Positions 31,157 through 58,357 of a DNA stretch of 64,000 bases are shown here, in pieces. The notes beneath the pieces were generated by a model. The model saw only the letters and a program-made list of their open reading frames with translations, searched no databases and had not been told where the DNA came from. Position 1 is the stretch's first letter. Every line of letters begins with the position of its first letter. A program made the translations under genes and the position numbers. The DNA is from Verrucomicrobiota bacterium (GTDB taxonomy: Bacteria > Auribacterota > JABMQX01 > JAFGEW01): NCBI GenBank assembly GCA_016931415.1, contig JAFGEW010000099.1, forward strand, positions 18,522-82,521, written 5' to 3'.

Positions 31157-32152
31157 GTGGGCAAGCCCAAAGTCGCCTTCTACTGGTGCGCCAGTTGCGG
31201 CGGGTGCGAGGAAGCGGTCGTCGATCTGGCCGAGGATATCCTCAAGGTCGTCGATGCCGTTGACATCGTGCTCTGGCCCGTGGCGCTCGACTTCAAGCTC
31301 AAGGACGTCAAGGCGATGAAGGACGGCGAGATTGCCGTAAGCTTCATCAACGGGGCGGTGCGCACCGAGGAGCAGGAGGAGTGGGTCAAGCTGCTGCGCA
31401 GGAAGTCGGGGTTGGTCGTGGCCTTCGGCGCGTGCGCGCACCTAGGCGGCGTGCCCGGGCTGGCGAACTTCTTTGACCGCAAGGCGATCTTCGATCGCGC
31501 CTACGACAAGGTTCCGAGCGCCGACAACCCGAACAAGACCCGGCCGCAGACGAGGACCGAGGTGCCCGAGGGCGTGCTCACGCTGCCCGCCTTCTTCAAC
31601 ACGGTGCGGACGCTCGACCAGGTCATTGACGTGGATTATTACCTGCCCGGCTGCGCGCCGCCGCCGGACCTGATCATGGGAGCCGTCACGGCGATCCTCA
31701 AAGGCGAGCTGCCGCCCAAGGGCACGGTACTCGCTCCGACGAAGGCGCTGTGCGACACCTGTCCGCTCAAGGAATCGAAACCCGAGAAGATGCTCATCCA
31801 CGAGTTCAAACGCGTGGCGACGAGTACGCCGGACCCGACGGTGTGCTATCTCGCGCAAGGCTACGTCTGTCTCGGCCCGGCGACCCGCTCGGGCTGCGGC
31901 GAACGCTGCATCAACGCCAACATGACGTGCCGCGGCTGCTTCGGGCCGACGCCCGAAGCCATTGACCTGGGCGTGAAGGCCCTGTCGGCCATGGCGTCCA
32001 TCCTCGACACGAATGATGCCGACGAGATCACGCGGATCATGGATACCATGCCCGACCCGGCCGGCGTCTTCTACATGTACTGCTTGCCCTCGTCCGTGCT
32101 GCGGCGTCGCAAGGTGGAAGCCATTCCGAGAACGGAGAGCGCTCATGTCTAA
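31157..32152 (+). CDS. mvhG: [NiFe] hydrogenase small subunit, group 3c (MvhG-like)
   Basis: GTG start with a GAGGAG RBS. The N-terminal proximal-cluster cysteines are KVAFYWCASCGGCEE. Multiple distal-cluster cysteines follow (CDTCP, CLGPATRSGCGERCINANMTCRGCFGP). Confidence 0.8.
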   Translation: MGKPKVAFYWCASCGGCEEAVVDLAEDILKVVDAVDIVLWPVALDFKLKDVKAMKDGEIAVSFINGAVRTEEQEEWVKLLRRKSGLVVAFGACAHLGGVPGLANFFDRKAIFDRAYDKVPSADNPNKTRPQTRTEVPEGVLTLPAFFNTVRTLDQVIDVDYYLPGCAPPPDLIMGAVTAILKGELPPKGTVLAPTKALCDTCPLKESKPEKMLIHEFKRVATSTPDPTVCYLAQGYVCLGPATRSGCGERCINANMTCRGCFGPTPEAIDLGVKALSAMASILDTNDADEITRIMDTMPDPAGVFYMYCLPSSVLRRRKVEAIPRTESAHV

Positions 32153-33605
32153 GCAGATCACCATTGACCCGATCACGCGGCTCGAGGGCCACGGCAAGAT
32201 CGAGATATTCCTCGACGATGCAGGCAACGTGGCCAACGCCTACCTGCAGATTCCCGAGCTGCGCGGGTTCGAGCAGTTCGCCGTCGGCCGGCTCGTCGAG
32301 GAGATGCCGCGCATTACCCCGAAGATCTGCGGCGTGTGCCCGACGACGCACCACATGTGTTCGGGCAAGACCGTTGACGCCGTGTATCACGTCGACCCGC
32401 CGGTGCCGGCCAAGAAGATCCGCGAGCTGATCAACTCAGCGTTCATGTTCGAGGACCACACGCTGCACTTCTACTTCCTCGGCGGGCCGGACTTCGTCAT
32501 GGGGCCCGATGCGCCGGCGGCGACGCGCAACATCCTCGGCGTCATCGGTAAGGTGGGGCTCGAGATCGCGGGCCAGGTCATCGCCATCCGTCGCCGCACG
32601 CGCAAGGTGATCAGCGACCTCGGCGGACGCGTCATCCACCCGGTGTGCAACGTGCCGGGCGGTGTCTCGAAGGGGGTCACCAAGGAGCTGCAGGAAGAGT
32701 ACATCCAGACCGCGAAGGACGCCGTCGAGTTCGCCAGGTTCTCGCTCAAGCTCTTCGACGACGTCGTGCTGGCGAACAAGGGTTACGTCGACGTCATCGT
32801 CGGCGACGTCTACAAGCACCAGACCTACTACATGGGCCTGGTGGACAAAAACAACAAGGTCAGCTTCTACGACGGCGACGTGCGGGTCGTGACGCCGACG
32901 GGCGAGCAGTTCGCCAAGTTCAAGCCGAACGAGTATCTCGACCATATCGCCGAGCACGTCGAGCCGTGGAGCTACATCAAGTTCCCGTTCCTCAAGAAGG
33001 TCGGCTGGAAGGGCTTCGTCGACGGCAAGGACAGCGGTGTCTACCGCGTTGCGCCGCTCGCGCGGCTCAACGCGTCCGACGGTATGGCCACGCCCCAGGC
33101 GCAGGAGGCGTACGAGAAGATGTTCTCGGTCCTCGGCGGCAAGCCGGCGCACAACACGCTTGCCTACCACTGGGCGCGCCTCGTCGAGCTGCTCTACGCG
33201 GCCGAGCGTCTCCTCGAGCTGGCGCAAGATCCTGACATTCTCGATCCGAACATCCGCACGGTGCCGACCGAGACACCGTCCGAGGGCGTAGCTGTCGTCG
33301 AGGCGCCGCGTGGCACGCTCTATCACCACTACAAGACCGACGAGCGCGGCGTCGTGCAGGAAGCCAACCTCATCGTCGCGACGGTGAACAACTCGGCGGC
33401 GATCGCCATGTCGGTCGCGCGCGCCGCAAAGGGGCTCATCAAGAACGGCAAGGTCAACGACGGTCTGCTCAACATGGTCGAGATGGCCTTCCGCGCCTAT
33501 GACCCCTGCATGGCGTGCGCCACACACGCTTTGGGCAAGACGCCGCTCATTGTCACGCTGCGCGATCCGAGCGGCGACGCGATCCAAGTGCTGCGCCGCG
33601 ACTGA
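32145..33605 (+). CDS. mvhA: [NiFe] hydrogenase large subunit, group 3c (MvhA-like)
   Basis: RLEGHGKI and RICGVCPTTHH (L1 Ni ligands) are present. The C-terminal motif DPCMACATH is followed by a ~25-aa cleavable tail. The ATG overlaps the mvhG stop by 8 nt. Confidence 0.85.
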   Translation: MSKQITIDPITRLEGHGKIEIFLDDAGNVANAYLQIPELRGFEQFAVGRLVEEMPRITPKICGVCPTTHHMCSGKTVDAVYHVDPPVPAKKIRELINSAFMFEDHTLHFYFLGGPDFVMGPDAPAATRNILGVIGKVGLEIAGQVIAIRRRTRKVISDLGGRVIHPVCNVPGGVSKGVTKELQEEYIQTAKDAVEFARFSLKLFDDVVLANKGYVDVIVGDVYKHQTYYMGLVDKNNKVSFYDGDVRVVTPTGEQFAKFKPNEYLDHIAEHVEPWSYIKFPFLKKVGWKGFVDGKDSGVYRVAPLARLNASDGMATPQAQEAYEKMFSVLGGKPAHNTLAYHWARLVELLYAAERLLELAQDPDILDPNIRTVPTETPSEGVAVVEAPRGTLYHHYKTDERGVVQEANLIVATVNNSAAIAMSVARAAKGLIKNGKVNDGLLNMVEMAFRAYDPCMACATHALGKTPLIVTLRDPSGDAIQVLRRD

Positions 33606-33769: not shown

Positions 33770-34354
33770 ATGTGGTCTCGGCTGGTTCGTGTGGGTCTGC
33801 TTGCAGTGGTTGTTCTGGTCACACCTGCCTGCGCCGCCTTGGTTCGGCGGGCGGCGGCATTCTCCCCCTTGCTCGCCCATGGCGAAGGCGGCGAAGACGG
33901 CTTGGTGGAGATGCTCGGCGAGCAGCACGTTGCCGTCATTCATTTCCCGATTGCGCTCACCATTGCAGCCGCGCTGGCGGAGCTGCTCGCCCTCATCACG
34001 CGGCGGCCTGCGTTCACGCACGCGGCTCGCTTCTGCATCGTGATCGCGGCGCTCGGCGCCATCGCCGCCGTCATCACCGGCTGGATCGCGTTCGGGGAGG
34101 AAACCGAAGGCATGACGGCAGCAGCTATGAAGTCGAATCCCCTGACCCGGAATCTTCTGATCCATCGTTCGCTCGGTATTGCGGCGGCCATCGTGATCGT
34201 GGCAGGGGCCGTTCTGTCCGAGGTTGGCCACATCGGCCGGAACAAGTGGGTGATGCTGGCATCCCGGATCGCCTTGCTCGCGGCCGTTGTCCTCGTAGTT
34301 CTTACAGGCTACTACGGTGGGAAATATGTGTTCCCCGAAATGCCACCGGCTTAG
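33770..34354 (+). CDS. hypothetical polytopic membrane protein (4-5 TM) at the head of the copper-efflux cluster
   Basis: 194 aa with a hydrophobic profile and conserved His residues. No recognisable motif. Confidence 0.5.
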   Translation: MWSRLVRVGLLAVVVLVTPACAALVRRAAAFSPLLAHGEGGEDGLVEMLGEQHVAVIHFPIALTIAAALAELLALITRRPAFTHAARFCIVIAALGAIAAVITGWIAFGEETEGMTAAAMKSNPLTRNLLIHRSLGIAAAIVIVAGAVLSEVGHIGRNKWVMLASRIALLAAVVLVVLTGYYGGKYVFPEMPPA

Positions 34355-35762
34355 CAGACGTGCCACGACCGTGCTTCGTGCTGTTGTGCTCGCCTTGATC
34401 GCGGTTGGCGGATCGTCGTGCGCAGGCCGGCGGGAGACGCTGTCTGACGGAAGGCCGGTGCCCGCGAACGGCCCGATGCCGGCGTCGCCGATATCGGCGC
34501 CGGCCATGTTGCCCGACGAGCCGACGATTGATGACTACATCGCCTACGCGGAGCAGAACAACCCAGCGATACGTGCCGCGCGGGAGCGGTGGCATGCGGC
34601 GCTGGAACGCGTCCGGCAGGCGCGCTCGCTGCCTGACCCGAGGCTGAGTTTCGGCGAGTTCGTCGAGTCGGTCGAGACGCGCGTCGGGCCGCAGGAGTGG
34701 AACGCGACGTTGTCGCAAACCTTCCCCTGGTTTGGCACGCTCGGGCTGCGCGGCGACGCTGCCCGCTCTGGCGCCGCGATGGCCGCACAACAGGTCGAGG
34801 CGCTGCGCCTCAAGATCATCTACCAACTCAAACACGACTACTACGAGTACTACTACCTCGCCCGTGCCGTCGGCGTGAGCGAGGAGAACGTGCAGCTTGT
34901 CGCCGATCTCGAGGAGGTCGCCCGCACCGCCTACGCTGCGGGCCGGGTGCCGCAAGCGGCGGTGATCAAGGCCCAGGTCGAGCTCGAGAAGCTCCGCGAC
35001 CGCCTCCGCACACTTAGCGAGCAACGCATTCCCGTCGCAGCCAAGATCAACGCTCTCCTCGGGCGGGAAGCCGATGCGCCGCTGCCGTGGCCGCAGGTAT
35101 TGCCCGACGATGACGAAATCCTGCCGGCCGCTGAACTCCTCAACCAGCTCCGTACAGCGAACCCCGAACTCCGTGCCCTGGCCCATGCGGCGAACAGGGC
35201 GAGCCGCGCCGAGGCACTCGCGCGCAAGGCGCGCTACCCCGACCTGACGCTCGGCGTCACCTACGTCTCGACCGGTGACGCCGTCATGCCCAACGTCGCC
35301 GGCAGCGGCAAGGACCCCGTCATGGTCATGTTGTCGGTCAACCTGCCCGTCTGGGGCGGCAGGAACCGCGCCGTCATCCGCGAGGCCCGGGCGCAGCTCG
35401 AGTCGGCCATCGCCGAACGCGGCGACCGCGAGAACATGCTGGTCGCCGAGCTCGAGATGGCGCTGTTCAAGTACAACGACGCGGTGCGCAAGATCACCCT
35501 GTACCGCGACACGCTGGTTCCCCAGGCCAAGCAGAGCCTCAACGTGACCCAGCAGGCTTTCACGGCCGGCACGGTGGCCTTCCTTGACCTGATCGACGCC
35601 CAACGCACGCTGCTCGAGATCCAGCTCATGGCCGAACGGGCGCTCGTGGACCGCGCTCAGCAGCGCGCCGCACTCGATATGCTGACCGGGCGCGGGCTGT
35701 CGAATGGCGCGGGAAACACTGCGGTCGGGAATCAACTTGGTGCTGATGGTGTTGAGAAATGA
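34317..35762 (+). CDS. cusC: outer-membrane efflux factor (TolC/CusC/CzcC family), lipoprotein
   Basis: The signal peptide plus lipobox reads LIAVGGSSC. Two repeats of the OEP domain with coiled-coil alpha-helical content are present. It sits upstream of the cusBA-like genes. Confidence 0.75.
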   Translation: MGNMCSPKCHRLSRRATTVLRAVVLALIAVGGSSCAGRRETLSDGRPVPANGPMPASPISAPAMLPDEPTIDDYIAYAEQNNPAIRAARERWHAALERVRQARSLPDPRLSFGEFVESVETRVGPQEWNATLSQTFPWFGTLGLRGDAARSGAAMAAQQVEALRLKIIYQLKHDYYEYYYLARAVGVSEENVQLVADLEEVARTAYAAGRVPQAAVIKAQVELEKLRDRLRTLSEQRIPVAAKINALLGREADAPLPWPQVLPDDDEILPAAELLNQLRTANPELRALAHAANRASRAEALARKARYPDLTLGVTYVSTGDAVMPNVAGSGKDPVMVMLSVNLPVWGGRNRAVIREARAQLESAIAERGDRENMLVAELEMALFKYNDAVRKITLYRDTLVPQAKQSLNVTQQAFTAGTVAFLDLIDAQRTLLEIQLMAERALVDRAQQRAALDMLTGRGLSNGAGNTAVGNQLGADGVEK

Positions 35763-35818
35763 ATGGACTCATCGTGAATGTACACACGCGATCAGCACCC
35801 AGGCCGAGGAGAGTGCTC

Positions 35819-36625
35819 ATGAAGACCATGTTCGCCGCGCTTGTCGCCGCGGCCCTTATAGGCATTGTCGTGACGCCTGCGTTCCCCGAAGGCGAGGCCG
35901 AGGTCAGAGGGCAGACAATCTGCCCAGTCATGGGCGGCGTCGTCGACAAGCAGTACTTCGCCGACCACAACGGGAAGCGTGTCTACTTCTGCTGCCCGGC
36001 GTGCGCGCCCGAGTTCGCCAAAGATCCGGAGAAGTACATCAAGAAGCTCGAAGACGAAGGCATCACGCTCGATCAGACGCCGGACGATGGCCAGGGCGCC
36101 GATGAGGCGGCAGGCCACACCGGGCAAGTCTGGATATGTTCCATGCACGCGCAGGTCGAGCAGCCAGAGGCGGGCAATTGCCCCATGTGTGGCATGGACT
36201 TGGTCTTGCGCGAGGCCGAGGGAACGACCGAGACTGTCACGACGCAGACAGCCTGCCCCAATTCGGGCAAGCCGATTAACAAGAACCACTTCGCCGACTA
36301 CAACGGGAAGCGCGTCTACTTCTGCGGTCCCGGCTGCGTCAAGGCCTTCAAGGCCGATCCCGAGCCGTACATGAAGAGGCTCGCCGACGCCGGCGTCGTA
36401 CTCGAAGATGCGCCCAGGGAAGTGAAAACGCAGACGATGTGCCCCGTGCTGACGAACCAGAAGATCAACAAGAGCATCTTCGCTGACCACGAGGGCAAGC
36501 GCGTCTACTTCTGCTGCCGCAGTTGCCAGCGCGCGTTCGGGAAGAACCCAGCCAAGTACGTGAAGCAGCTCGAGGACCAGGGCATCACGCTCGAGCGTGT
36601 GTCCCAGACCTCCCACTCGCACTGA
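35819..36625 (+). CDS. periplasmic metal-binding protein with three YHS/TRASH-like domains and one CusB-type heavy-metal-binding (HMBD, C-x-M-H...C-P-x-C-G-M) domain
   Basis: Signal peptide present. The unit (I/M)CPV..G..(V/I)(D/N)K..FADHNGKRVYFC(C/G)..C...F..(D/N)P..Y(I/M)K(K/R)L occurs three times. VWICSMHAQVEQPEAGNCPMCGMDLV, the HMBD, sits in the middle. Confidence 0.65.
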   Translation: MKTMFAALVAAALIGIVVTPAFPEGEAEVRGQTICPVMGGVVDKQYFADHNGKRVYFCCPACAPEFAKDPEKYIKKLEDEGITLDQTPDDGQGADEAAGHTGQVWICSMHAQVEQPEAGNCPMCGMDLVLREAEGTTETVTTQTACPNSGKPINKNHFADYNGKRVYFCGPGCVKAFKADPEPYMKRLADAGVVLEDAPREVKTQTMCPVLTNQKINKSIFADHEGKRVYFCCRSCQRAFGKNPAKYVKQLEDQGITLERVSQTSHSH

Positions 36626-36806: not shown

Positions 36807-38837
36807 ATGAACAGCCCCCGGGGAACGATTCGATTTCTTGTCCTGGCCGCGGTGCTTCTGACAGCGGCCTTCTTGCTGGGCTTCTGGATGCGAGGCGGGC
36901 ATGTGGAGCCCGCCGCGCGCCACGATCGCGCCGACGGCGATGAGGCTGAGGCGGCGGCGTGGTATTGCAGCATGCACCCGGAACTGGGGCATTTCCCGGA
37001 CCCTGGCCGTTGCCCGATCTGCGGCATGGCCCTGGTGCCGGTGCCGACCGAGCATGAGAGCAAGGAGCTTGGGCCGCGCCAGGTCCGGCTCTCGCCCTAC
37101 GCGCGGAAGTTGTCCGAGCTCGAGACGACCAAAGTTGTGCGCAAGCCCGTCGAGGCGCAGCTCCGCCTCGTGGGCAAGGTCGAGTACGACGAGACGCGCC
37201 TCGGCACCATCACCGCCTGGGTGCCGGGCCGCCTCGACCGGCTCTACGTGGACTACACGGGCATCCCGGTCCAGAAAGGCGACCACCTTGTCTATCTCTA
37301 CAGCCCGGAGCTGCTCACGGCGCAGGAGGAGCTGATCCAGGCGCTCAAGACGCTCCGCGCGCTCGAGGCGGGCTCGGCGACACCCGGCGCCGTCGAGTCG
37401 GCACGCCTGACGCTGGACGCTGTGCGCGAGAAGCTCCGGCTCTGGGGCCTGACGCCCGAGCAAGTCGCCGAGACTGAAAAGCGCGGCACGCCTTCGGACC
37501 ACATGACCATCTACGCGCCGATGAGCGGGATCGTCATCCACAAGAATGCCGTCGAGGGGATGTACGTGCAGACCGGCACGGTCATCTACACCATCGCCGA
37601 TCTGTCGCGCATCTGGGTCAAGCTGGATGCCTACGAATCGGATCTGCCGTGGATCAAGTACGCGCAGCGGGTCACGTTCGAGGCCGAGGCGTACCCGGGC
37701 GAGCGCTTCGAGGGCACGGTGGCCTTCATTGATCCCATCCTGGACGCGAAGACCCGGACGGTGAAAGTCCGTGTCAACGTCGAGAACCCCGAAGGCAGGC
37801 TCAAGCCGGGGATGTTCGTTCGCGCGATCGTTCGCGCGCAAGTGGCCGCAGGCGGCCGTGTGGTGAGCGCGGCGCTCGCGGGGAAATGGATCAGCCCAAT
37901 GCACCCGGAGATTGTCAAGGATGAGTCGGGAACGTGCGACGTCTGCGGCATGCCGCTCGTGCGCGCCGAGAGCCTCGGCTACGTCTCACCCGAGGACGTG
38001 CAGGCTGAGGCGCCGCTCGTCATCCCGGCCTCGGCCCCGATTCTCACCGGCAGGCGCGCTGTGGTCTACGTCGAGGTGCCGGGCGAGCCGGGCGTGTACG
38101 AGGGCCGCGAGATCGCGCTCGGCCCGCGCGCGGGCGACTACTACATCGTCAACGCGGGGCTGGCCGAGGGCGAATCGGTCGTCTCGAGCGGCGGCTTCAA
38201 GATCGATAGCGCCCTGCAGATCCTGGCCAAACCAAGCATGATGAGCCCTGAGGGCGGCACAGCGCCGCCGGACCACGATCACGGTGCGGCAACGCCCATT
38301 ACGCCCAACGGGGATACGGAAGCGGCCACCGGGCAGGAGATCGGCGTCCCCGCCGTGTTCACGACGCAGCTCGACGCCGTGCTCGGCGCGTATTTCGAGG
38401 TTCAGCACGCACTGAGCCGCGATGAGCTCGATGGCGCCACGGCGGGAGCGACCGCGCTGCTCAGCGCGCTCGACGAGGTAGACATGGCGTTGCTTCAAGG
38501 ACCGGCGCACGAGGCGTGGATGAAGGAGCTGCAGGGCTTGACGAAGAGCGCGAAGGCGCTCGCCACGGCGCGGGAGATCGCGAAGGCCCGCGAGGCGTTC
38601 GAAGCGCTTTCGGCCGGCGCGTACGTGGTCGCCAAGCATTTCGGCACGGGCGGCGCGCAGCCGATCCTGCGATTCCACTGCCCGATGGCCTTCGACGGCC
38701 GGGGCGCGGACTGGCTCCAGAGAACGACGGACACCGAGAACCCATACTTCGGCTCGCAGATGTTCAGGTGCGGCGAGCAGGTCGAGACCGTCGCCGCGGG
38801 AGCCGCCACCCAGCGCGACGAGCACGGCCATGAATAA
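36807..38837 (+). CDS. cusB: RND efflux membrane-fusion protein (CusB/HlyD family), enlarged: two HMBD metal-binding motifs + C-terminal helical DUF3347-like domain
   Basis: 676 aa. HMBDs are WYCSMHPELGHFPDPGRCPICGMAL and WISPMHPEIVKDESGTCDVCGMPL. The MFP beta-barrel/lipoyl core is present. The C-terminal ~150 aa are helical and end in RFHCPMAF. Confidence 0.75.
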   Translation: MNSPRGTIRFLVLAAVLLTAAFLLGFWMRGGHVEPAARHDRADGDEAEAAAWYCSMHPELGHFPDPGRCPICGMALVPVPTEHESKELGPRQVRLSPYARKLSELETTKVVRKPVEAQLRLVGKVEYDETRLGTITAWVPGRLDRLYVDYTGIPVQKGDHLVYLYSPELLTAQEELIQALKTLRALEAGSATPGAVESARLTLDAVREKLRLWGLTPEQVAETEKRGTPSDHMTIYAPMSGIVIHKNAVEGMYVQTGTVIYTIADLSRIWVKLDAYESDLPWIKYAQRVTFEAEAYPGERFEGTVAFIDPILDAKTRTVKVRVNVENPEGRLKPGMFVRAIVRAQVAAGGRVVSAALAGKWISPMHPEIVKDESGTCDVCGMPLVRAESLGYVSPEDVQAEAPLVIPASAPILTGRRAVVYVEVPGEPGVYEGREIALGPRAGDYYIVNAGLAEGESVVSSGGFKIDSALQILAKPSMMSPEGGTAPPDHDHGAATPITPNGDTEAATGQEIGVPAVFTTQLDAVLGAYFEVQHALSRDELDGATAGATALLSALDEVDMALLQGPAHEAWMKELQGLTKSAKALATAREIAKAREAFEALSAGAYVVAKHFGTGGAQPILRFHCPMAFDGRGADWLQRTTDTENPYFGSQMFRCGEQVETVAAGAATQRDEHGHE

Positions 38838-41800
38838 GCCGCCGAATGGACAGCGGGCCTCTGGACCGTCGCCCACAGACAAGGTCATCCGCTTCTTCCT
38901 CGAGAAGAAGGTGATAGTCCTCCTGCTCATCATCCTCGTCATCGGCTGGGGCCTGATGGTCGCGCCGTTCGATTGGAAGCTCGGCGGCCTGCCGCGCAGT
39001 CCGGTACCCGTGGACGCGATCCCTGACATCGGCGAGAACCAGCAGATCGTCTTCACCGACTGGATGGGCCGCTCGCCCCAGGACGTCGAGGACCAGATCA
39101 CCTATCCGCTCACGGTGTCGCTGCTCGGCGTGCCGAAGGTCAGGACGATTCGCAGCTACTCGGCGTTCGGGTTCTCGACGATTTACGTCATTTTCGAGGA
39201 TAAGGTGGACTTCTACTGGGCGCGCTCGCGCGTGCTCGAAAAGCTCAACAGCCTCGCGTCGGGCACGCTGCCCGACGGCGTCCAGCCGCGGCTCGGCCCG
39301 GACGCCACCGCGCTCGGCCAGGTATTCTGGTACACGCTCGAGGGCCGCGATGCGCAGGGCAACCCGGCCGGCGGGTGGAGCCTCGACGAACTCCGCACGA
39401 TCCAGGACTGGCACGTGCGCTATTCGCTGCTGTCGGCCGAGGGCATCAGCGAGGTGGCGTCCATCGGCGGCTTCGTCAAGGAGTACCAGATCGACGTCGA
39501 CCCCGACGCGATGCGGGCCTACAACGTCTCGCTCGGCGAGGTGGTGGCGGCCGTGCGCATGTCCAACGTAGACGTCGGCGCGCGCACGATCGAGATCAAC
39601 CGCGTCGAGTACGTCATCCGCGGGCTCGGTTTTGTCAAGAGCCTCGACGATATCGAGAACACCGTCGTCAAGGTCAACGACAACGTTCCCATCTACGTCA
39701 AGAACGTCGGCACGGTGGCGCTGGGTCCGGCGCTGCGCCGGGGCGCGCTCGACAAGGAAGGCGCCGAGGCCGTCGGCGGCGTGGTCGTCGTGCGCTACGA
39801 CGAGAACCCGCTTGCCGCCATCAACAACGTCAAGGAGAGGATCAAGGAGATCGCCCCGGGCCTGCCGAAGAAGACGCTGCCCGACGGCACGGTGAGCCAA
39901 GTGACGATCGTGCCGTTCTACGACCGAACGGGCCTGATCCACGAGACGCTCGGCACGTTGAACACGGCGTTGAGCCAGGAAATCCTGGTCACCATCATCG
40001 TCATCATCATCATGGTGGTGCACCTGCGCAGTTCTATGCTTATCTCGGCCGTGCTGCCGATGGCCGTGCTCATGTGCTTCATCGCGATGAAGCTCTTCGG
40101 TGTGGACGCCAACATCGTGGCGCTCTCGGGCATCGCGATCGCTATCGGCACGATCGTGGATATGGGCATCATCATCTGCGAGAACATCCTCAAGCATTTG
40201 GAGCAGGCCGGCCCGGACGAAAACCGTCTCGAGGTCGTCTATCGCGCCGCCAGCGAGGTGGGCAGCGCGGTGCTGACGGCTGTGGCGACCACCGTCGTGA
40301 GCTTCTTGCCTGTGTTCACGATGATCGCCGCGGAGGGCAAGCTGTTCCGGCCGCTGGCGTTCACGAAGACGTTCGCGCTTGTGGCATCGGTGATCTTCGC
40401 GCTGACCGTGATCCCGTCGCTCGCGCTGGTCTTCTTCCCGATCAAGGTGCCCAGCCGCGCACTGCGTCGCGTTCTGCTCGGCGCGCTCGTGGCCGCCGGC
40501 GTGCTCATCGGGGTGTTCGTCGTCTGGTGGGCGGGCGCACTCGTTGCGCTTGTGGGCGCCTACCGGCTCGTCGAGCCGCTGCTGCCGCCGAGGCTGAGGC
40601 GATCGGCGCCGTGGGTCACGGTGGGTCTCGTTGCCGGGGCGGTGGCCGTGGTGCTGGCCCAAGCCTGGCTGCCGCTCGGGCCCGAGAAGGGTCTTCTGCG
40701 CAACCTCGTTTTCGTCGCCGGCATCATCGGTCTGCTGCTCGCCTTTTTCCTGCTTTTCCAGCGCGTGTACCCGCGCATCCTGCGGTGGTGTCTTGACCAC
40801 AAGGCGGCCTTCCTGGCGATCCCGATCGTGCTCGTCTTTCTTGGCGGCATGGCGTGGCTCGGTTTCGATGCCTTCTTCGGCTGGCTGCCGCGCCCGCTCC
40901 GCACGTCGCGCCCGGTATCGGCCGTCGCACATGCCTTCCCCGGCTTGGGCAAGGAGTTCATGCCCCCGCTCGACGAGGGCTCCTTCCTGTGGATGCCGAC
41001 GACGATGCCGCATGCCTCGATCGGGGAGTCCCTCGACACGCTGCAGAAGCAGGATATGGCCATCCGCGCCGTGCCGGAGGTGGACACGGTCGTTGGCAAG
41101 ATTGGGCGCGCAGAGAGCCCGCTCGATCCCGCACCGATCTCGATGATCGAGACGGTCATCAACTACAGGCCCGAGTACATCGTGGACCGCAACGGACGGC
41201 GCATTCGGTTCCGGTTCGATCCGGGGCGGAACGACACCTTCCGGGCCGAGGACGGCACGCCGCTGCCTGCACCGGACGGCGAGCCCTACGTTGTCGCCGG
41301 GCGCTTCGTGCGCGACGAGGAGGGCCGGCTTATTCCCGACCGGAACGGGCGGCCCTTCCGCCTGTGGCGCCCGGCGCTCGATCCGGCGCTCCAGCCCGAC
41401 GGTGACCGCGCGGCGTGGTCCGGGATCCGCAACCCCAACGACATCTGGGAGGAGATCGTCGCTGCGGCCCAAGTGCCCGGTTCGACGACGGCCCCGAAGC
41501 TGCAGCCGATCGAGACGCGCCTCGTCATGCTCCAGACGGGCATGCGCGCGCCGATGGGCCTCAAGGTCAAGGGGCCGGACCTCGAGGCGATCGAGCAGTT
41601 CGGCATTCAGGTAGAGCGCCTGCTCAGGGAGGTGCCGTCAATCGAGGAGAGGACGGTCAGCGCCGACCGCATCGTCGCCAAGCCCTACCTCGAGATCGAC
41701 ATTGACCGCGAGGCGATCGCCCGCCACGGCGTGATGCTGCGCCAGGTGCAGGATGTCATCGAGACCGCCATCGGTGGCCAGACCATCACGACCACGGTCG

Positions 41801-43020
41801 AAGGCCGCGAACGCTTCCCGGTCCGCGTGCGCTACGCGCGCGAGTTGCGCGACACGATCGAGGCGCTCGAGGGGGTGCTCGTTCCCGCGCACGACGGGGC
41901 GCAAATCCCGCTGCGGCAACTGACCGAGGCTCACACGGAGATCAGCCTCAACGCCGAGAACGCGATGGACCGCAACCTCGATGAGGCAGCCGTGGCGAAC
42001 GCACTCCATGCCTTTATCGCCCAGAACGGCATCCGCCTCACCTACGGTAGCGCCTCGAGTTTCCCCGTCCATGTCCGGCGCAAGCGCGACTGGCTCACGC
42101 ACGAACAGGCCTTCGAGACTGTTACCGTGCGCAATGGGGCCGGGGAGGAGATTGCGTTGAGCGACGTGCTTCGCGTCGAGCACCTCCAGGGCGTGCGCTA
42201 CACGCCCGGGCCGCAGATGATCAAGAGCGAGGACACGTTCCTCGTCGGCTACGTGACGTTCGGCATGAAGCCCGGCTACGCGGAGGTCGACGTCGTCCGC
42301 CACGCGCAGGCGTACCTCGAGCATAAGGAGATGACGGGCGAGCTGCAGCGGCCGCCCGGGGTCAGCTACACGTTCTCCGGGAGCTACGAGAACCAGGTGC
42401 GCGCCGCGCGCACGCTCGCCGTCGTTCTGCCGCTGGCGCTCCTCATCATCTTCCTGATCCTGTACCTGCAGTTCAACTCCGTCCCGAGGACGCTGCTCGT
42501 CTTCTCGGGCATCGTCGTGGCGTGGTCGGGCGGCTTTATTCTGATCTGGCTCTATGCACAGCCGTGGTTCCTGGATTTCGCCGTCTTCGGCACCAGCATG
42601 CGCGAGCTGTTCTCCGTGCACCCGATCAACCTGAGCGTCGCGGTCTGGGTCGGCTTCCTGGCGCTCTTCGGCATCGCGTCGGACAACGGAGTGCTTATTA
42701 CGACCTACCTCAACCAGTCATTCGTGCGCCACAAGCCGATGACGGCTGCCGAGGTGCGTGCAGCGACGATCGAGGCAAGCCTGCGCCGCATCCGGCCCGC
42801 ACTCATGACGTCGGCGACGACCATCCTCGCGTTGGTCCCCGTGCTCACCTCCACGGGACGTGGTGCCGACGTCATGGTGCCGATGGCGATTCCGTCATTC
42901 GGCGGCATGTTGCTCGCGCTCATCACGGTGTTCGTTGTACCCGTGCTCTACTGCGCCATCGAGGAGCACAAGCTCAAAGGCGCGAAGCGGCGGGCTGCGG
43001 TGGCTGCGCCGCAGATGTGA
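38830..43020 (+). CDS. cusA: heavy-metal-efflux RND transporter (CusA/CzcA family), unusually long (1396 aa) with inserted extra TM helices and periplasmic insertions
   Basis: RND blocks include GIAIAIGTIVDMGIIICENI, DNGVLITTYLNQ and PMAIPSFGGMLLALITVFVVPVLY. A ~100-aa hydrophobic insertion lies between canonical TM6 and the second periplasmic domain. Two further insertions of ~70-95 aa lie in the periplasmic domains. Confidence 0.85.
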   Translation: MNKPPNGQRASGPSPTDKVIRFFLEKKVIVLLLIILVIGWGLMVAPFDWKLGGLPRSPVPVDAIPDIGENQQIVFTDWMGRSPQDVEDQITYPLTVSLLGVPKVRTIRSYSAFGFSTIYVIFEDKVDFYWARSRVLEKLNSLASGTLPDGVQPRLGPDATALGQVFWYTLEGRDAQGNPAGGWSLDELRTIQDWHVRYSLLSAEGISEVASIGGFVKEYQIDVDPDAMRAYNVSLGEVVAAVRMSNVDVGARTIEINRVEYVIRGLGFVKSLDDIENTVVKVNDNVPIYVKNVGTVALGPALRRGALDKEGAEAVGGVVVVRYDENPLAAINNVKERIKEIAPGLPKKTLPDGTVSQVTIVPFYDRTGLIHETLGTLNTALSQEILVTIIVIIIMVVHLRSSMLISAVLPMAVLMCFIAMKLFGVDANIVALSGIAIAIGTIVDMGIIICENILKHLEQAGPDENRLEVVYRAASEVGSAVLTAVATTVVSFLPVFTMIAAEGKLFRPLAFTKTFALVASVIFALTVIPSLALVFFPIKVPSRALRRVLLGALVAAGVLIGVFVVWWAGALVALVGAYRLVEPLLPPRLRRSAPWVTVGLVAGAVAVVLAQAWLPLGPEKGLLRNLVFVAGIIGLLLAFFLLFQRVYPRILRWCLDHKAAFLAIPIVLVFLGGMAWLGFDAFFGWLPRPLRTSRPVSAVAHAFPGLGKEFMPPLDEGSFLWMPTTMPHASIGESLDTLQKQDMAIRAVPEVDTVVGKIGRAESPLDPAPISMIETVINYRPEYIVDRNGRRIRFRFDPGRNDTFRAEDGTPLPAPDGEPYVVAGRFVRDEEGRLIPDRNGRPFRLWRPALDPALQPDGDRAAWSGIRNPNDIWEEIVAAAQVPGSTTAPKLQPIETRLVMLQTGMRAPMGLKVKGPDLEAIEQFGIQVERLLREVPSIEERTVSADRIVAKPYLEIDIDREAIARHGVMLRQVQDVIETAIGGQTITTTVEGRERFPVRVRYARELRDTIEALEGVLVPAHDGAQIPLRQLTEAHTEISLNAENAMDRNLDEAAVANALHAFIAQNGIRLTYGSASSFPVHVRRKRDWLTHEQAFETVTVRNGAGEEIALSDVLRVEHLQGVRYTPGPQMIKSEDTFLVGYVTFGMKPGYAEVDVVRHAQAYLEHKEMTGELQRPPGVSYTFSGSYENQVRAARTLAVVLPLALLIIFLILYLQFNSVPRTLLVFSGIVVAWSGGFILIWLYAQPWFLDFAVFGTSMRELFSVHPINLSVAVWVGFLALFGIASDNGVLITTYLNQSFVRHKPMTAAEVRAATIEASLRRIRPALMTSATTILALVPVLTSTGRGADVMVPMAIPSFGGMLLALITVFVVPVLYCAIEEHKLKGAKRRAAVAAPQM

Positions 43021-43051: not shown

Positions 43052-43723
43052 CTACGAGCTCTGCTGCCCGCCATGGACGTGGCGGACTACATCGCCCTCG
43101 ATCATGAAGATCACATCCTCGGCGATGTTTGTGGCGTGGTCGGCGATCCGCTCGAGGTTGCGTGACGACGAGAGGGCATGGACGGCCCGCTCGATCGTCA
43201 ACGGGTCGTCGTGCATGAGCTGCTGGAGTGCGTCAAACATCTCACGGTTGGCCGCGTCCACCTCGTCGTCGCGCCGAAGCACGCTCCGGGCCAGCATCTC
43301 GTCCATGTTCACGAGCGCATCGAGGCTCTGTCGCACCATGGTGCGTACCGTCTCGGCCATCCTTGAGAACCCTGCAGGGAGACGGATCGCATCATGTGTC
43401 GCGAGGTAGACGGCGCGCTCGGCGATGTTGGCCGCGAGGTCAGCCATACGTTCGAGGTCGTTGTTGACCTTCATCACGGCAACGATGAAGCGCAGATCGA
43501 TGGCGACGGGCTGATGCAAGGCGAGGATCTTGAGGCATTGCTCTTCCACTTCGACCTCACGGGCATCGATCACGCTGTCGCCGTCGATGACCTCGCGGGC
43601 GGTCTCGGGGCGGCGATCCATAAGCGCCTTGATCGCCTTGCCGATCGCTTCCTCAACCAGCGAGCCGACTTTCAGGATTTCCTTCTTGAGATGCTCGAGG
43701 TCACGTTCGAGATGCTTGGGCAT
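43052..43723 (-). CDS. phoU: phosphate-specific transport system accessory protein PhoU
   Basis: 223 aa with two PhoU repeats (..ERMADLAANIAE.. / ..ERIADHATNIAEDV..). Confidence 0.85.
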   Translation of the reverse strand: MPKHLERDLEHLKKEILKVGSLVEEAIGKAIKALMDRRPETAREVIDGDSVIDAREVEVEEQCLKILALHQPVAIDLRFIVAVMKVNNDLERMADLAANIAERAVYLATHDAIRLPAGFSRMAETVRTMVRQSLDALVNMDEMLARSVLRRDDEVDAANREMFDALQQLMHDDPLTIERAVHALSSSRNLERIADHATNIAEDVIFMIEGDVVRHVHGGQQSS

Positions 43724-43778
43724 TGTTTGCTCCGTTTGTGAGACGTATCGGCCGGGTTCTGCCTGGCCGCTGGCATAC

Positions 43779-44606
43779 TCAACCGAAGCGGCCGGTGATG
43801 TAGTCCTCTGTTCGTTGCTCTTTCGGCTTCGTGAAGACCCGCCGCGTTACGTCGAACTCGACAAGCTCGCCCTCGTAGAGAAATCCAGTGTAATCGGAGA
43901 CGCGCGCTGCCTGCTGCATGTTATGCGTGACGATCATGATCGTATAGCGGCCTCGCAGCTCACGGATCAGGTCCTCGATCCGTGTCGTGGCTCGAGGGTC
44001 AAGGGCCGAGGTCGGTTCGTCCATGAGCAGCACATCGGGGTCGACGGCGAGCGCCCGGGCAATGCAGAGCCGTTGTTGCTGGCCGCCCGAGAGGCGCAGG
44101 GCATTCTCCGACAGCCGGTCCTTCACCTCGTCCCAAAGCGCCGCGCGGCTCAGGCTGCGCTCGACGATCTCCAGCAAGCGGCGGCGACCGCGGTTCCCGT
44201 GCAGGCGTGGCCCGTAGGCGACGTTGTCGAAGATCGATTTGGGGAACGGATTCGGCTTCTGAAACACCATGCCGACGCGGCGCCGCAGCTCAGCCACATC
44301 GACACGGGGGCCGTAGACATCCTCGCCGTCGAGCAGCAGCCGGCCGCGCGTCGAGCAGCCGGGGATGAGATCATTCATCCGGTTGACGGCACGCAGCAGC
44401 GTGCTTTTCCCGCAGCCGCTTGGTCCGATGATCGCCGTAACCTGCCCGGCCGGGATACTGCACGTGACGTGCTCGACGGCCCTATTCGTGCCGTACAATA
44501 CCGAGAACGCTTCGGCTTGGACATGCGCTTCGGATGGGGCGATCCCGTTGAGCGTGGCGTCCGCTGGTTCGCTCGTGACCTCGTTTTGCGCCGAAAGGCG
44601 GATCAT
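43779..44606 (-). CDS. pstB: phosphate ABC transporter ATP-binding protein
   Basis: Walker A is GPSGCGKST. The ABC signature is [15 protein letters not shown]. Walker B is [11 protein letters not shown]. The PstB-specific N-terminal region is present. Confidence 0.9.
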
Positions 44607-44612
44607 GCCTGG

Positions 44613-46034
44613 CTACCCCCTGAGTTTCTTCGATAATCTCGCGCGTAGCGCGACGGCCACAACGTTGAGCAACAGCACGATGAGAACAAGGGTCAGCACC
44701 ATCCCGTATTGCACGTGCACGATCTCGTCCTGCGCGGCGTGCTCGGTGGTCAAGTTGTAGATGCTCCACGGCAGCGCGGGCGTGGGTTGTGTGAGCGTCT
44801 GCCACACCTTGAGCGGCCTGCCGACGCTGACTGCCGCGGTGAAGATGATCGGCGCCGTCTCGCCGGCTGCGCGCCCCATGCTGATCACGATCCCGGTGAG
44901 CACGCCCGGCAGCGCCGCCGGCAGCACAACGGTTAGTGTTGTGCGCAGGCGGCTTGCCCCGAGGCTCAACGCCGCCTCGCGGTAGGTGTTCGGCACGGCG
45001 CGGATCGCCTCTTCGGACGCGCGGATAATCGTCGGCAGTATCAGGACGGCTAACGTGAGCGAGCCGGCCAGCACGCTCTTCGAGCTCGAGACGTGGACGG
45101 TATTGACAAAGAAGGCCAGCCCGAACAAACCGAACACGATGCTCGGCACGCCCGCGAGCGTACTGATGAACGTGCGCAGCAGGCTCACGGCCCGGCCCTC
45201 GCCCGCGTACTCGGCCAAGTATATGGCTGAGATCACGCCGAGCGGGACGGCAAACAGCATCGCGCCGATGGCGAGGTAGATGGTCCCGAGCATCTCGGGC
45301 CAGATGCCACCGAACATATGCGCATCGAGCGACTCGTCGAATAGAAACCGCCAGTAGACGGTCAAGCGCGGGCGCAGCATGTCGTCCGCATGCTCCTCGA
45401 TGTAGGCAAACAACGGTTCGAGCGACGTGCCTTCGAACTGCTCGACACGAGGCGAGTAGACAAGCGTGCCCATCTTCGTCGGGTCGCTGTGGTCGTAGCT
45501 CTCGGCGTTCAGGATGAGATGCAGCACCTGCTGTGCGCGATCCCACCGGGTCGCCCCGTACTGGGCGCGGATGACAATCGGCCGTCTCTCGCCAGGGAAC
45601 GGGCCAAGCAACTCACGGAGAAGCTCCTTGATCTCGTCAAGCGAATCACGGTACTGGCGCCGTTCGGCGAGCCTCATTCCCACAAGGTCCTGCTCGAACG
45701 CGGCGATGACCTCGTAGACCGGACGGCGCGCCTCCGCCGTGCGGCCCATCTCCTCCGCGAGCGCCGAACGGCTGCCGCGCTGGAACTTCTCGAGCATGAG
45801 CCGCCGGTGCTCGACGGTCGCTCGGAAGACAAACGCCCGGCTTCCGCGTACGAAGATCGGTCCGAGGATCACAACGAGGGCCGCTCCCAGTAGCACGATT
45901 GAGGCGATCCCCAGCCCGGAGAACGCTTTGTCGAGTGCTTTGCGAGTCCCAGGCTGCACGACGCTATCTCCCTCTGAGCTTGGCTTGTGCACGACGCACA
46001 ATCCATTCGCTCGCCAGATTGGCGAGTAAGGCAA
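44613..46034 (-). CDS. pstA: phosphate ABC transporter permease PstA (with ~190-aa N-terminal extension)
   Basis: The C-terminal 280 aa form the PstA TM core with the EAA-like loop (ASEEAIRAVPNTYREAALSLGASRLRT). The N-terminal extension carries one TM helix plus a soluble region. Confidence 0.8.
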   Translation of the reverse strand: MPYSPIWRANGLCVVHKPSSEGDSVVQPGTRKALDKAFSGLGIASIVLLGAALVVILGPIFVRGSRAFVFRATVEHRRLMLEKFQRGSRSALAEEMGRTAEARRPVYEVIAAFEQDLVGMRLAERRQYRDSLDEIKELLRELLGPFPGERRPIVIRAQYGATRWDRAQQVLHLILNAESYDHSDPTKMGTLVYSPRVEQFEGTSLEPLFAYIEEHADDMLRPRLTVYWRFLFDESLDAHMFGGIWPEMLGTIYLAIGAMLFAVPLGVISAIYLAEYAGEGRAVSLLRTFISTLAGVPSIVFGLFGLAFFVNTVHVSSSKSVLAGSLTLAVLILPTIIRASEEAIRAVPNTYREAALSLGASRLRTTLTVVLPAALPGVLTGIVISMGRAAGETAPIIFTAAVSVGRPLKVWQTLTQPTPALPWSIYNLTTEHAAQDEIVHVQYGMVLTLVLIVLLLNVVAVALRARLSKKLRG

Positions 46035-55257: not shown

Positions 55258-55369
55258 CGCCGCACCCGTTCCAGCCCTGCCGGGCGCCGCGAGTCGCACG
55301 CCACACGCGATATGCGTTATACTGCATACAGAACGCGGAGACGTGCCGCACGCACAAGGGAGTCGCACG

Positions 55370-56443
55370 ATGAAGACGAAGATGAAGGTCAAGTCAGCCC
55401 ACATGCTCAGGCTGCCGCCCGGATCGTTGACCGCGCCGCCGGGCGCCTACATGCCAAAGACGATCGAGGTGTTCCGCTATACGGCCGATTCCGTCGAAGA
55501 GAAAAGCCTCGCGCGAGTGGCCGACCTTGCTGCCTGCAAGGACAAGCCAGGCGTGCTCTGGGTCAACGTCGACGGTGTCGGCGACGTCGAGATCGTGCGC
55601 GAGATCGGCAACCTGTTCGGTCTCCATCCGCTCGCGCTCGAAGACGTGCTTCACGTGCGCCAACGCCCGAAGGTGGACGACTACGGCGACCACCTCTATG
55701 TCGTCGTGCGCATGCTGCACTTCACCGATGAGGTCGAATCGGAACAGGTCAGCATGTTCCTGACCCGCAGCGCCGTCATCACCTTCCAGGAGCATCCGGG
55801 CGACTCCTTCGACACCGTGCGCCAGCGGCTGCGCAAAGGCACCGGCCTGGTCCAGCGCCACGGCGCCGACTACCTCATGTACGCGCTCATGGACGCAATC
55901 ATCGACGACTACTACCCGTTCCTCGAAGGCATCGGCGAGCAGGTCGAGGCGCTCGAAGACCAGGTCGTCGCGCGCCCCTCGCGCACCACGCTCGGCCGCG
56001 TGCACGCAGTCAAACGCAATCTGCTCGACGTGCGGCGCGCGGTCTGGCCGCTGCGCGATGCCGTGAACAGCCTGCTCCGCGAGGACAACGCGCTCATCGC
56101 CAAGGCGACGCGCCTCTACCTGCGCGACTGCTACGACCACACCGTGCAAGTGCTCGATATCGTTGAGACCTACCGCGAATCCGCCGGCAACCTCATGGAC
56201 ATCTACCTCTCGAGCGCGAGTAACCGGATGAACGAGGTGATGAAAGTGCTCACCATCATCGCCACGATCTTTATCCCGCTGACGTTCCTCGCGGGCGTCT
56301 ACGGCATGAACTTCAGGTACATGCCGGAACTCGGGCTCTCCTGGACCTATCCAGCCCTCTGGGCGGTCATGGTGGCCATCGCCGTCACCATGCTCGTCCT
56401 GTTCTGGCGCAAAGGCTGGATCGGCCGGGGACGAGGCGAGTAA
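55370..56443 (+). CDS. corA: magnesium/cobalt transporter CorA
   Basis: The GMN motif is AGVYGMNFRYMPEL. Two C-terminal TM helices follow, and a KGWIG tail is present. Start assigned to the MKTKM ATG. Confidence 0.85.
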   Translation: MKTKMKVKSAHMLRLPPGSLTAPPGAYMPKTIEVFRYTADSVEEKSLARVADLAACKDKPGVLWVNVDGVGDVEIVREIGNLFGLHPLALEDVLHVRQRPKVDDYGDHLYVVVRMLHFTDEVESEQVSMFLTRSAVITFQEHPGDSFDTVRQRLRKGTGLVQRHGADYLMYALMDAIIDDYYPFLEGIGEQVEALEDQVVARPSRTTLGRVHAVKRNLLDVRRAVWPLRDAVNSLLREDNALIAKATRLYLRDCYDHTVQVLDIVETYRESAGNLMDIYLSSASNRMNEVMKVLTIIATIFIPLTFLAGVYGMNFRYMPELGLSWTYPALWAVMVAIAVTMLVLFWRKGWIGRGRGE

Positions 56444-58353: not shown

Positions 58354-58357
58354 AGCC

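Follow-up and report, generated by a model that had tools for sequence, protein, structure and literature searches.

What accounts for the length of a heavy-metal efflux pump that exceeds Escherichia coli CusA (1047 amino acids [aa]) by 349 aa, and what might the added segments do? We address this question for a gene in a 64,000-nucleotide (nt) stretch of contig JAFGEW010000099.1 (GCA_016931415.1, positions 18,522-82,521, forward strand), here called the window:

38830-43020 (+): long-form CusA-type HME-RND permease, 1396 aa (TIGR00914, 744.2 bits; CusA 3ne5, 1.5e-175)

We conclude that the gene encodes an intact CusA/CzcA-family RND permease with in-frame insertions, and that its excess length is composite, combining insertions common to a whole clade with one lineage-specific tandem duplication of the DC docking subdomain. 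Taken as one, the explanation that fits best, and that we regard as likely, is a functional long-form CusA-type Cu(I)/Ag(I) permease in which a four-helix membrane block works through a scaffold or platform mechanism.

The pump is a single uninterrupted open reading frame (ORF) running from an ATG at 38830 to a stop codon at 43018-43020, and NCBI holds a 100% identical protein deposited from a Verrucomicrobia metagenome-assembled genome. Its score passes the curated cut-off of TIGR00914 (CusA/CzcA heavy-metal-efflux RND; 701.45 bits), and it falls far under the cut-offs of the multidrug RND models. In a phmmer search of PDB sequences the best solved relative is E. coli CusA, followed by ZneA (1.1e-110); the same two proteins are the top Foldseek matches of a 1199-aa structural model. 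Four blocks of the query (q) are collinear with CusA (q59-545 with 41-521, q702-782 with 560-640, q870-1019 with 650-796, and q1119-1381 with 808-1049), and the two flanks of each gap align in one frame, so that neither a fusion nor a frameshift is present. The RND architecture is complete, with 12 canonical transmembrane (TM) helices in two 6-TM repeats and large periplasmic loops after TM1 and TM7. This assignment is based on collinearity with CusA 41-1049, on hydropathy, and on the helices of an AlphaFold2 (AF2) model, and it places the extra helices as additions to the canonical set, not as substitutes. A preliminary description of this DNA had proposed an oversized CusA/CzcA-type pump of 1396 aa, and both the family cut-off and the four collinear blocks bear it out; the fusion or frameshift that it had named as grounds for rejection was looked for in the CusA alignment, where the insertions proved to be in-frame.

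The excess was mapped with a MAFFT alignment of the query, E. coli CusA, and 15 long-form homologues. In the TM6-TM7 region, the residues found in the query only are 542-617, 628-638, and 654-686 (about 120 extra aa within the span 542-686); elsewhere they are 783-843, 851-867, 1034-1121, 1244-1265, and both termini. MAFFT also paired CusA PESSNPLNRF with query PEKGLLRNLVF, which we judged arbitrary, as phmmer puts the CusA post-TM6 residues straight after the query TM6. The insertions, and the segment from which one of them was copied, are as follows:

40465-40758 (+): insertion 1, predicted 98-aa four-helix membrane block in the TM6-TM7 linker, aa 546-643, absent from CusA
41176-41430 (+): insertion 2, 85-aa all-beta module in PC1, aa 783-867 (AF2 predicted local distance difference test [pLDDT] 83, predicted TM-score [pTM] 0.72, beta only)
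41677-41913 (+): DC docking-subdomain segment, aa 950-1028, template of the duplication (hhalign)
41929-42192 (+): insertion 3, 88-aa diverged tandem DC copy, aa 1034-1121 (homologous register aa 1032-1110)
42559-42624 (+): insertion 4, 22-aa aromatic-rich addition QPWFLDFAVFGTSMRELFSVHP in the TM9-TM10 loop, aa 1244-1265, clade-wide

The roughly 100 hydrophobic residues that the preliminary description had placed between TM6 and TM7 correspond to insertion 1, and the possibility that this insertion might be soluble does not agree with its strongly hydrophobic character. The two periplasmic insertions had been located approximately correctly, but their sizes had not: the one given as about 95 aa has 85, and the one given as about 70 aa has 88. 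The 22-aa fourth insertion and the origin of the 88-aa insertion as a DC duplicate had been overlooked.

The TM6-TM7 block extends from the post-TM6 cytoplasmic KVPSRAL (CusA KIPPESS in the phmmer alignment) to the I-alpha-equivalent segment QRVYPRILRWCLDHK, the second half of which matches CusA FLIRVYHPLLLKVLHWPK when aligned by eye. Its parts, with residues of the model construct denoted by c, are as follows:

40456-40518 (+): helix a1, aa 543-563, predicted cytoplasm to periplasm (AF2 c529-549, pLDDT ~73-76)
40525-40581 (+): helix a2, aa 566-584, predicted periplasm to cytoplasm (AF2 c552-570)
40588-40665 (+): helix b, aa 587-612, predicted cytoplasm to periplasm (AF2 c573-598)
40666-40692 (+): b-c loop WLPLGPEKG, aa 613-621, predicted periplasmic face, the block's most conserved element
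40693-40797 (+): helix c with the I-alpha-equivalent amphipathic segment QRVYPRILRWCLDHK, aa 622-656 (AF2 c608-642, pLDDT 82-90)
40801-40872 (+): canonical TM7, aa 658-681 (AF2 c644-663, q658-677; hydropathy)
40873-40935 (+): aromatic-rich post-TM7 segment GFDxFFGWLP..., aa 682-702, periplasmic interface, ~20 aa beyond CusA

Hydropathy resolves three hydrophobic stretches in the block (Kyte-Doolittle maxima of 2.1-2.7 in a 19-residue window), and the helices predicted within it are essentially charge-free. Three spans would invert TM7, so the helix count must be even, and for three stretches to yield an even count the first of them, 32 residues long, has to be a hairpin. The AF2 model, computed for a spliced 1199-aa construct that keeps all TM segments, divides that stretch in two and gives helices at q543-563, 566-584, 587-612, and 622-656, with TM7 next at q658-677; the first three helices of the block have a pLDDT of 64-76 and the fourth one of 82-90. 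Across 56 sequences, the mean number of Lys plus Arg residues (K+R) per segment alternates as 4.5 / 0.2 / 3.1 / 1.4 / 2.9, which under the positive-inside rule fits a cytoplasm/periplasm/cytoplasm/periplasm/cytoplasm order; helix a1 has 0.05 K+R per sequence, the value of 3.1 belongs to the loop ahead of helix b, and helix a2 begins at a near-invariant WW-AG turn.

Insertions and deletions give a third view of the block. Counts over loci refer here and below to the 80 best loci of a scan of one genome per species, in which matches with the long-form TM6-TM7 region were counted, and indels were scored over 77 of these loci. Indels of at least 3 aa fall in the TM6-a1 loop (8), at the a1/a2 turn (5), and in helix b after residue 595, its cytoplasmic end (2); over the same 77 loci the b-c loop and helices a1, a2, and c are free of them, and each block residue of the query is absent from fewer than five loci. 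Polar inserts of 3-14 aa occur exactly at the a1/a2 turn in six independent lineages (five loci and the homologue P0115). The post-TM7 segment is an indel hotspot after aa 688-692, with indels of at least 3 aa in 21 of the 77. Where two to four added spans had been predicted, the number is thus even, and the AF2 model, the K+R pattern, and the indels favor four. The block accordingly modeled would consist of two helical hairpins (a1/a2 and b/c), four membrane helices in all, with both ends cytoplasmic, giving about 16 membrane helices per protomer with the canonical topology unchanged. That canonical topology is preserved alike in a four-helix version and in one with a half-spanning a1/a2.

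Conservation is uneven along the block. In the b-c loop region W613, P615, G617, G621, and N625 are invariant among the 56 sequences (consensus HWLPLGPEKG), and W566 at the a1/a2 turn is invariant or nearly so; around the end of TM7, W676, G678, and P687 are invariant and F679, F683, G684, and W685 reach at least 90%. The block helices vary by hydrophobic substitution, and the invariant or near-invariant residues sit on the predicted periplasmic face, a pattern that points to selection acting on periplasm-facing loops rather than on helices. The preliminary description had proposed that the added helices could serve in regulation or assembly. When aa 540-700 were compared exhaustively by phmmer with 1.84 billion representatives, all 286 matches, fragments and full-length proteins, belong to the same pump clade, and none of these 286 places the block outside RND pumps; there is thus no evidence that a stand-alone membrane protein was captured. 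Insertions 1 and 2, searched in isolation, have no Pfam match.

The periplasmic additions have different histories. Insertion 2, present in every aligned long-form homologue and in 73 of the 80 loci, is modeled with good confidence as two long strand pairs, with conserved motifs that include PFRLWRP and PDDIW; a Foldseek search of this model against PDB gave no significant structural neighbor (best E value, 1.5). Insertion 3 arose by tandem duplication of the neighboring DC segment and has since diverged. By blastp, aa 1029-1100 match aa 947-1018 at 25% identity (E value, 0.004), and hhalign aligns insertion and DC segment with 93.4% probability (E value, 2.5e-7) over 79 gap-free columns at an 82-residue offset. 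By itself the insertion weakly matches positions 717-799 of the ACR_tran profile, which, from the domain boundaries of AcrB, we take to be the DC region. No self-similarity between the DC copies was found at the DNA level, so the duplication is old. It is confined to the query and three sisters (P0001-P0004; the sisters are 71-81% identical to the query) among the 120 closest database proteins and occurs in 0 of the 80 loci. A homologue search with insertion 3 alone returned zero matches and missed even the parent protein, and is uninformative rather than negative. Insertion 4 is found in every long-form homologue aligned, with W1246, F1247, G1254, and F1261 invariant.

The metal-binding residues connect the pump to CusA:

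40993-41529 (+): span of the three-methionine Cu(I)/Ag(I) site, M722, M772, and M900 (CusA M573, M623, and M672)

These methionines are kept in the query and in 14 of 14 other aligned long-form homologues, and the residues corresponding to CusA E567, D617, R83, E412, and R669 are likewise conserved. Outside the three-methionine site, the CusA methionine relay is largely missing. Seven of eight CusA methionines checked are gone from the query, M1009 alone being kept; the others are replaced by V (M391), L (M486 and M271), I (M410 and M403), A (M501), and T (M755), and the M403 position is Met in some homologues. We take the relay pairs to be M391-M1009, M403-M486, and M410-M501 in the membrane and M271-M755 in the periplasm. 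The transmembrane pairs reportedly form the cytoplasmic uptake route proposed for CusA. With most of the relay methionines absent and the three-methionine site kept, we file the pump as CusA-type, probably working from the periplasm only and probably lacking that proposed cytoplasmic route. The proton-relay residues D405, E939, and K984 of CusA correspond to D444 (the conserved TM4 Asp), D1285, and A1324 (window positions ~42799-42801), and the invariant R1320 and R1322 sit one turn upstream of A1324. The replacement of K984 by Ala and of E939 by Asp, together with the nearby Arg residues, suggests a rewired proton relay.

How widespread is this architecture? All 120 of the closest database proteins are 1270-1404 aa long and contain insertions 1 and 2, and homologues at 57-81% identity share the insertions of the pump. 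The long-form TM6-TM7 region is encoded in at least 579 species-representative genomes from more than 12 phyla; among the matches listed are Planctomycetota, Lentisphaerota, Kiritimatiellota, Verrucomicrobiota, Thermodesulfobacteriota, and Latescibacterota, as well as Zixibacteria, KSB1, Hydrogenedentota, Acidobacteriota, Myxococcota, and Ignavibacteria. Cultured hosts include Stieleria magnilauensis, Novipirellula rosea, Halodesulfovibrio aestuarii DSM 17919, and Maridesulfovibrio sp. FT414. Complete pumps in the 80 loci have a median length of ~1310 aa. Insertion 1 was found in 15 of 15 aligned long-form homologues and in 80 of 80 loci, and by these alignments the TM6-TM7 block, the PC1 insertion, the post-TM7 segment, and the TM9-TM10 addition are clade-wide. 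The helix block is therefore a property of the clade and not a peculiarity of this gene, the DC duplication alone being lineage-specific. Central-loop helices had been called unusual at the outset, which holds relative to characterized pumps but not against their occurrence in so many genomes. We regard the long-form pumps as what is apparently an undescribed subfamily, distinct and extending across phyla. Its members are ~60-70% identical across very distant phyla (Planctomycetota, Thermodesulfobacteriota, Latescibacterota, and Marinimicrobia), a high value among RND permeases, and one which suggests that the operon as a whole has been extensively transferred between lineages by horizontal means.

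Four genes on the + strand form an operon in the order outer-membrane factor, metal-binding protein, adaptor, and pump, and the pump ATG overlaps the end of the adaptor gene, stop codon included, by 8 nt, as read directly from the sequence. The three upstream genes are as follows:

34317-35762 (+): first gene of the operon, a CusC/TolC-like outer-membrane factor (two Pfam OEP stretches, E value 2.4e-53)
35759-36625 (+): 288-aa multidomain metal-binding protein with three YHS domains, HMBD, and a TRASH-like domain (Pfam YHS 3.4e-20, HMBD 4.6e-11)
36807-38837 (+): enlarged CusB-type adaptor, in an ORF that opens with GTG at 36597 (Pfam HlyD_D23 2.9e-76, two HMBD, DUF3347 1.4e-16)

The likely start of the adaptor is Met71 at 36807, directly ahead of an N-terminal hydrophobic anchor. 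Its domains are ordered HMBD, barrel-sandwich, HMBD, and DUF3347, so that both HMBD modules flank the barrel-sandwich/beta-barrel core, and its tail contains His and Cys residues. At ~676-746 aa, versus 407 for E. coli CusB, it is ~270 aa larger. An adaptor homologue is present in 71 of the 80 loci, always upstream of the pump, and HMBD modules are covered in 64-67 of these 71 and DUF3347 in 57. In the orthologous locus of the sister protein P0003, which has the same kind of operon, the adaptor has 673 aa and an identical domain set. The 288-aa YHS/HMBD protein may be a metallochaperone, periplasmic or cytoplasmic, functionally in the place of CusF. In a sister operon (L082), its slot is taken by a 102-aa protein without a Pfam match.

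From sequence we infer both the export of Cu(I)/Ag(I) and the function of the helix block. By analogy with CusA, periplasmic Cu(I)/Ag(I) would be captured at the three-methionine cleft and expelled through the adaptor and the outer-membrane channel, with the proton-motive force as driver. In canonical pumps, as described in PMC8277102, a cytoplasmic amphipathic helix, I-alpha, joins TM6 and TM7, and TM7 lies at the periphery of the protomer. The block sits just upstream of the I-alpha helix and should therefore lie lipid-facing near TM7, where it would most likely be a structural scaffold. The WW turn, the WLPLGPEKG loop, the GFDxFFGWLP segment, and the PC1 beta-insertion could combine into a platform close to the membrane, which would buttress PC1 and/or serve as a docking site for the enlarged membrane-anchored adaptor or a metallochaperone; with the duplicated DC module, a single narrow verrucomicrobial lineage would have gained a larger docking crown. 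The loop-focused selection and the co-occurrence of the block with the PC1 insertion and a larger adaptor make a platform or scaffold role the most likely among those considered. The specific assignment, a scaffold whose membrane-proximal platform buttresses PC1 and/or docks adaptor or chaperone, is nonetheless one that we put forward only tentatively, and it competes mainly with an in-cis AcrZ-like allosteric element and with a purely stabilizing addition. A bolder reading would make the long form a distinct class of exporter, with 16 helices per protomer (48 per trimer), a new docking platform near the membrane made up of the four-helix block, its conserved periplasm-facing loops, and the PC1 beta-insertion, and a membrane-surface hand-off of metal unlike that of CusCFBA, in which the platform binds the HMBD/DUF3347 adaptor or the YHS/HMBD chaperone and metal passes from there to the three-methionine site; this we consider doubtful at present.

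Several observations weigh against the preferred reading of a four-helix block in a CusA-like pump. The quality of the 1199-aa model is only moderate (pLDDT 66.5; TM-score to CusA, ~0.5), and its alignment is shallow, with 56 sequences at ~70% identity; the position of CusA K984 is Ala or Cys across the clade, and energy coupling may differ. The a1/a2 arms, with ~18 and 13-16 hydrophobic residues, are short and may not fully span the bilayer, so that a half-spanning hairpin stays a live alternative. In that case helices b and c alone would span, for 14 TM helices per protomer, and a1/a2 would form a re-entrant or half-spanning hairpin entered from the cytoplasmic side. The a1/a2 stretch is indeed just ~32 residues long in most members, which is short for two spans and a turn, and pLDDT there is merely 68-76. 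However, the 7-14-residue polar or charged turn inserts of some lineages (RHLTTDGPTA, LVRSVSGAGSA) would then be buried mid-membrane, and the near-invariant WW at the turn suits the interfacial aromatic belt. We therefore think a 14-helix protomer unlikely and continue to prefer the four-helix block.

The other two rivals concern what the additions do and whether they are real. AcrZ binds the peripheral TM surface of AcrB, and the block might be an in-cis counterpart of such trans-acting accessory proteins (AcrZ- or YajC-like), tuning the conformational cycle allosterically instead of docking partners. Its place in the TM6-TM7 linker, beside I-alpha and the peripheral TM7 (geometry of canonical pumps from PMC8277102), would suit this role, as would helices that are lipid-like and variable, as expected of a peripheral binder. 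Yet neither phmmer nor Pfam reveals kinship with any stand-alone protein, conservation peaks in periplasm-facing loops and not on helix faces, and co-inheritance with the periplasmic insertions and the enlarged adaptor points to a periplasmic role, so that we rate this idea as quite improbable. That the extra length is an artefact, whether frameshift, misassembly, fusion of a neighboring ORF, or nonfunctional in-frame junk, we consider scarcely credible. The window is GC-rich and contains many spurious long ORFs on both strands, which is what might raise the suspicion, but a single frame is collinear with CusA on either side of every insertion, and the strongly negative AT skew at 40000-41000 is consistent with in-frame coding of hydrophobic residues. 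Moreover, hundreds of genomes share these insertions at identical positions, and some residues within the insertions are invariant. Assembly chimeras are implausible across independent complete genomes such as those of Halodesulfovibrio aestuarii DSM 17919 and Stieleria magnilauensis.

The operon has neighbors of other kinds. Upstream of it, an ORF of 530 aa at 32013-33605 (+) contains a NiFeSe hydrogenase large-subunit domain (Pfam E value, 4.3e-33). Phosphate-transport genes on the - strand (43052-46034), which look like PhoU, PstB, and PstA, converge on the pump operon, and three further genes were annotated downstream:

43052-43723 (-): PhoU-domain protein
43779-44606 (-): ABC ATPase, PstB-like by domain content
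44613-46034 (-): binding-protein-dependent permease, PstA-like by domain content
55343-56443 (+): CorA-type Mg2+/metal channel
56467-58353 (+): TamA-like Omp85/POTRA protein
58337-62248 (+): TamB, 1303 aa

The last of these was suspected from its length to be a second, paralogous long-form pump; it is TamB and has no similarity to the pump.

To our knowledge, all structural and mechanistic understanding of heavy-metal RND pumps comes from the ~1045-aa proteobacterial proteins CusA, ZneA, and CzcA, and a large share of environmental bacteria (Planctomycetota, Verrucomicrobiota, sulfate reducers, Latescibacterota, and Zixibacteria) use the ~1300-aa variant. Should the added helices prove to dock the adaptor or to change energy coupling, present models of how RND pumps assemble, and of whether metal is captured from the cytoplasm or the periplasm, would not apply to these organisms. 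The cultured hosts make the question experimentally addressable, and the rare DC duplication can serve as a natural experiment on how the docking crown is remodeled. In the literature searched we found no description of a long-form HME-RND protein or of extra helices in the RND TM6-TM7 linker, and we found no solved structure with the long-form architecture. The TCDB references in a phylogeny of the HME, NFE, and HAE-1 families are 1005-1080 aa long (PMC10872679), and a term search of the main text of that source returns neither "insertion" nor "transmembrane." The architecture thus appears to be undescribed, though the proteins are abundant in databases.

Among known systems, E. coli CusA (PDB 3K07, 3NE5, and 7KF5; CusCFBA) is the closest by sequence and fold. 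Its 12 TM helices and its periplasmic subdomains line up in the same order as those of the query, the three-methionine site is kept, the TM4 motif is CusA-type (GIAIAIGTIVDMGIIICEN versus GIAIAVGAMVDAAIVMIEN in the phmmer alignment), and the gene stands in a tripartite operon with adaptor and outer-membrane factor, as in most of the 80 loci. The query differs from CusA in its helix block, PC1 beta-insertion, duplicated DC, and extra interfacial post-TM7 and TM9-TM10 segments. ZneA (PDB 4K0E/4K0J), a CzcA-like Zn(II) pump of Cupriavidus metallidurans, shares the HME-RND fold, but at a canonical 1045 aa it is without any of these insertions; it is of the divalent-cation type, and the query has the CusA-type three-methionine site instead. 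A more distant parallel comes from drug/H+ antiporters of the DHA-2 type, whose two extra helices lie in the central linker between their two six-TM repeats. These belong to an unrelated superfamily and have two added helices, compared to four predicted in the query. The precedent within the major facilitator superfamily is the contrast between DHA-1 proteins with 12 TM helices and DHA-2 proteins with 14, as given in PMC8277102. The nearest likeness is to the other ~1300-aa long-form proteins, including those of Desulfacinum hydrothermale DSM 13146 (P0058) and the Halodesulfovibrio, Stieleria, and Novipirellula homologues, which are annotated generically as "efflux RND transporter permease subunit" or "CusA/SilA." At 57-73% identity they share the block, the PC1 and TM9-TM10 insertions, and the type of operon with the query, and it is the 88-aa DC duplication, absent in 116 of the 120 closest proteins, that sets the query and its sisters P0002-P0004 apart from this long-form kin.

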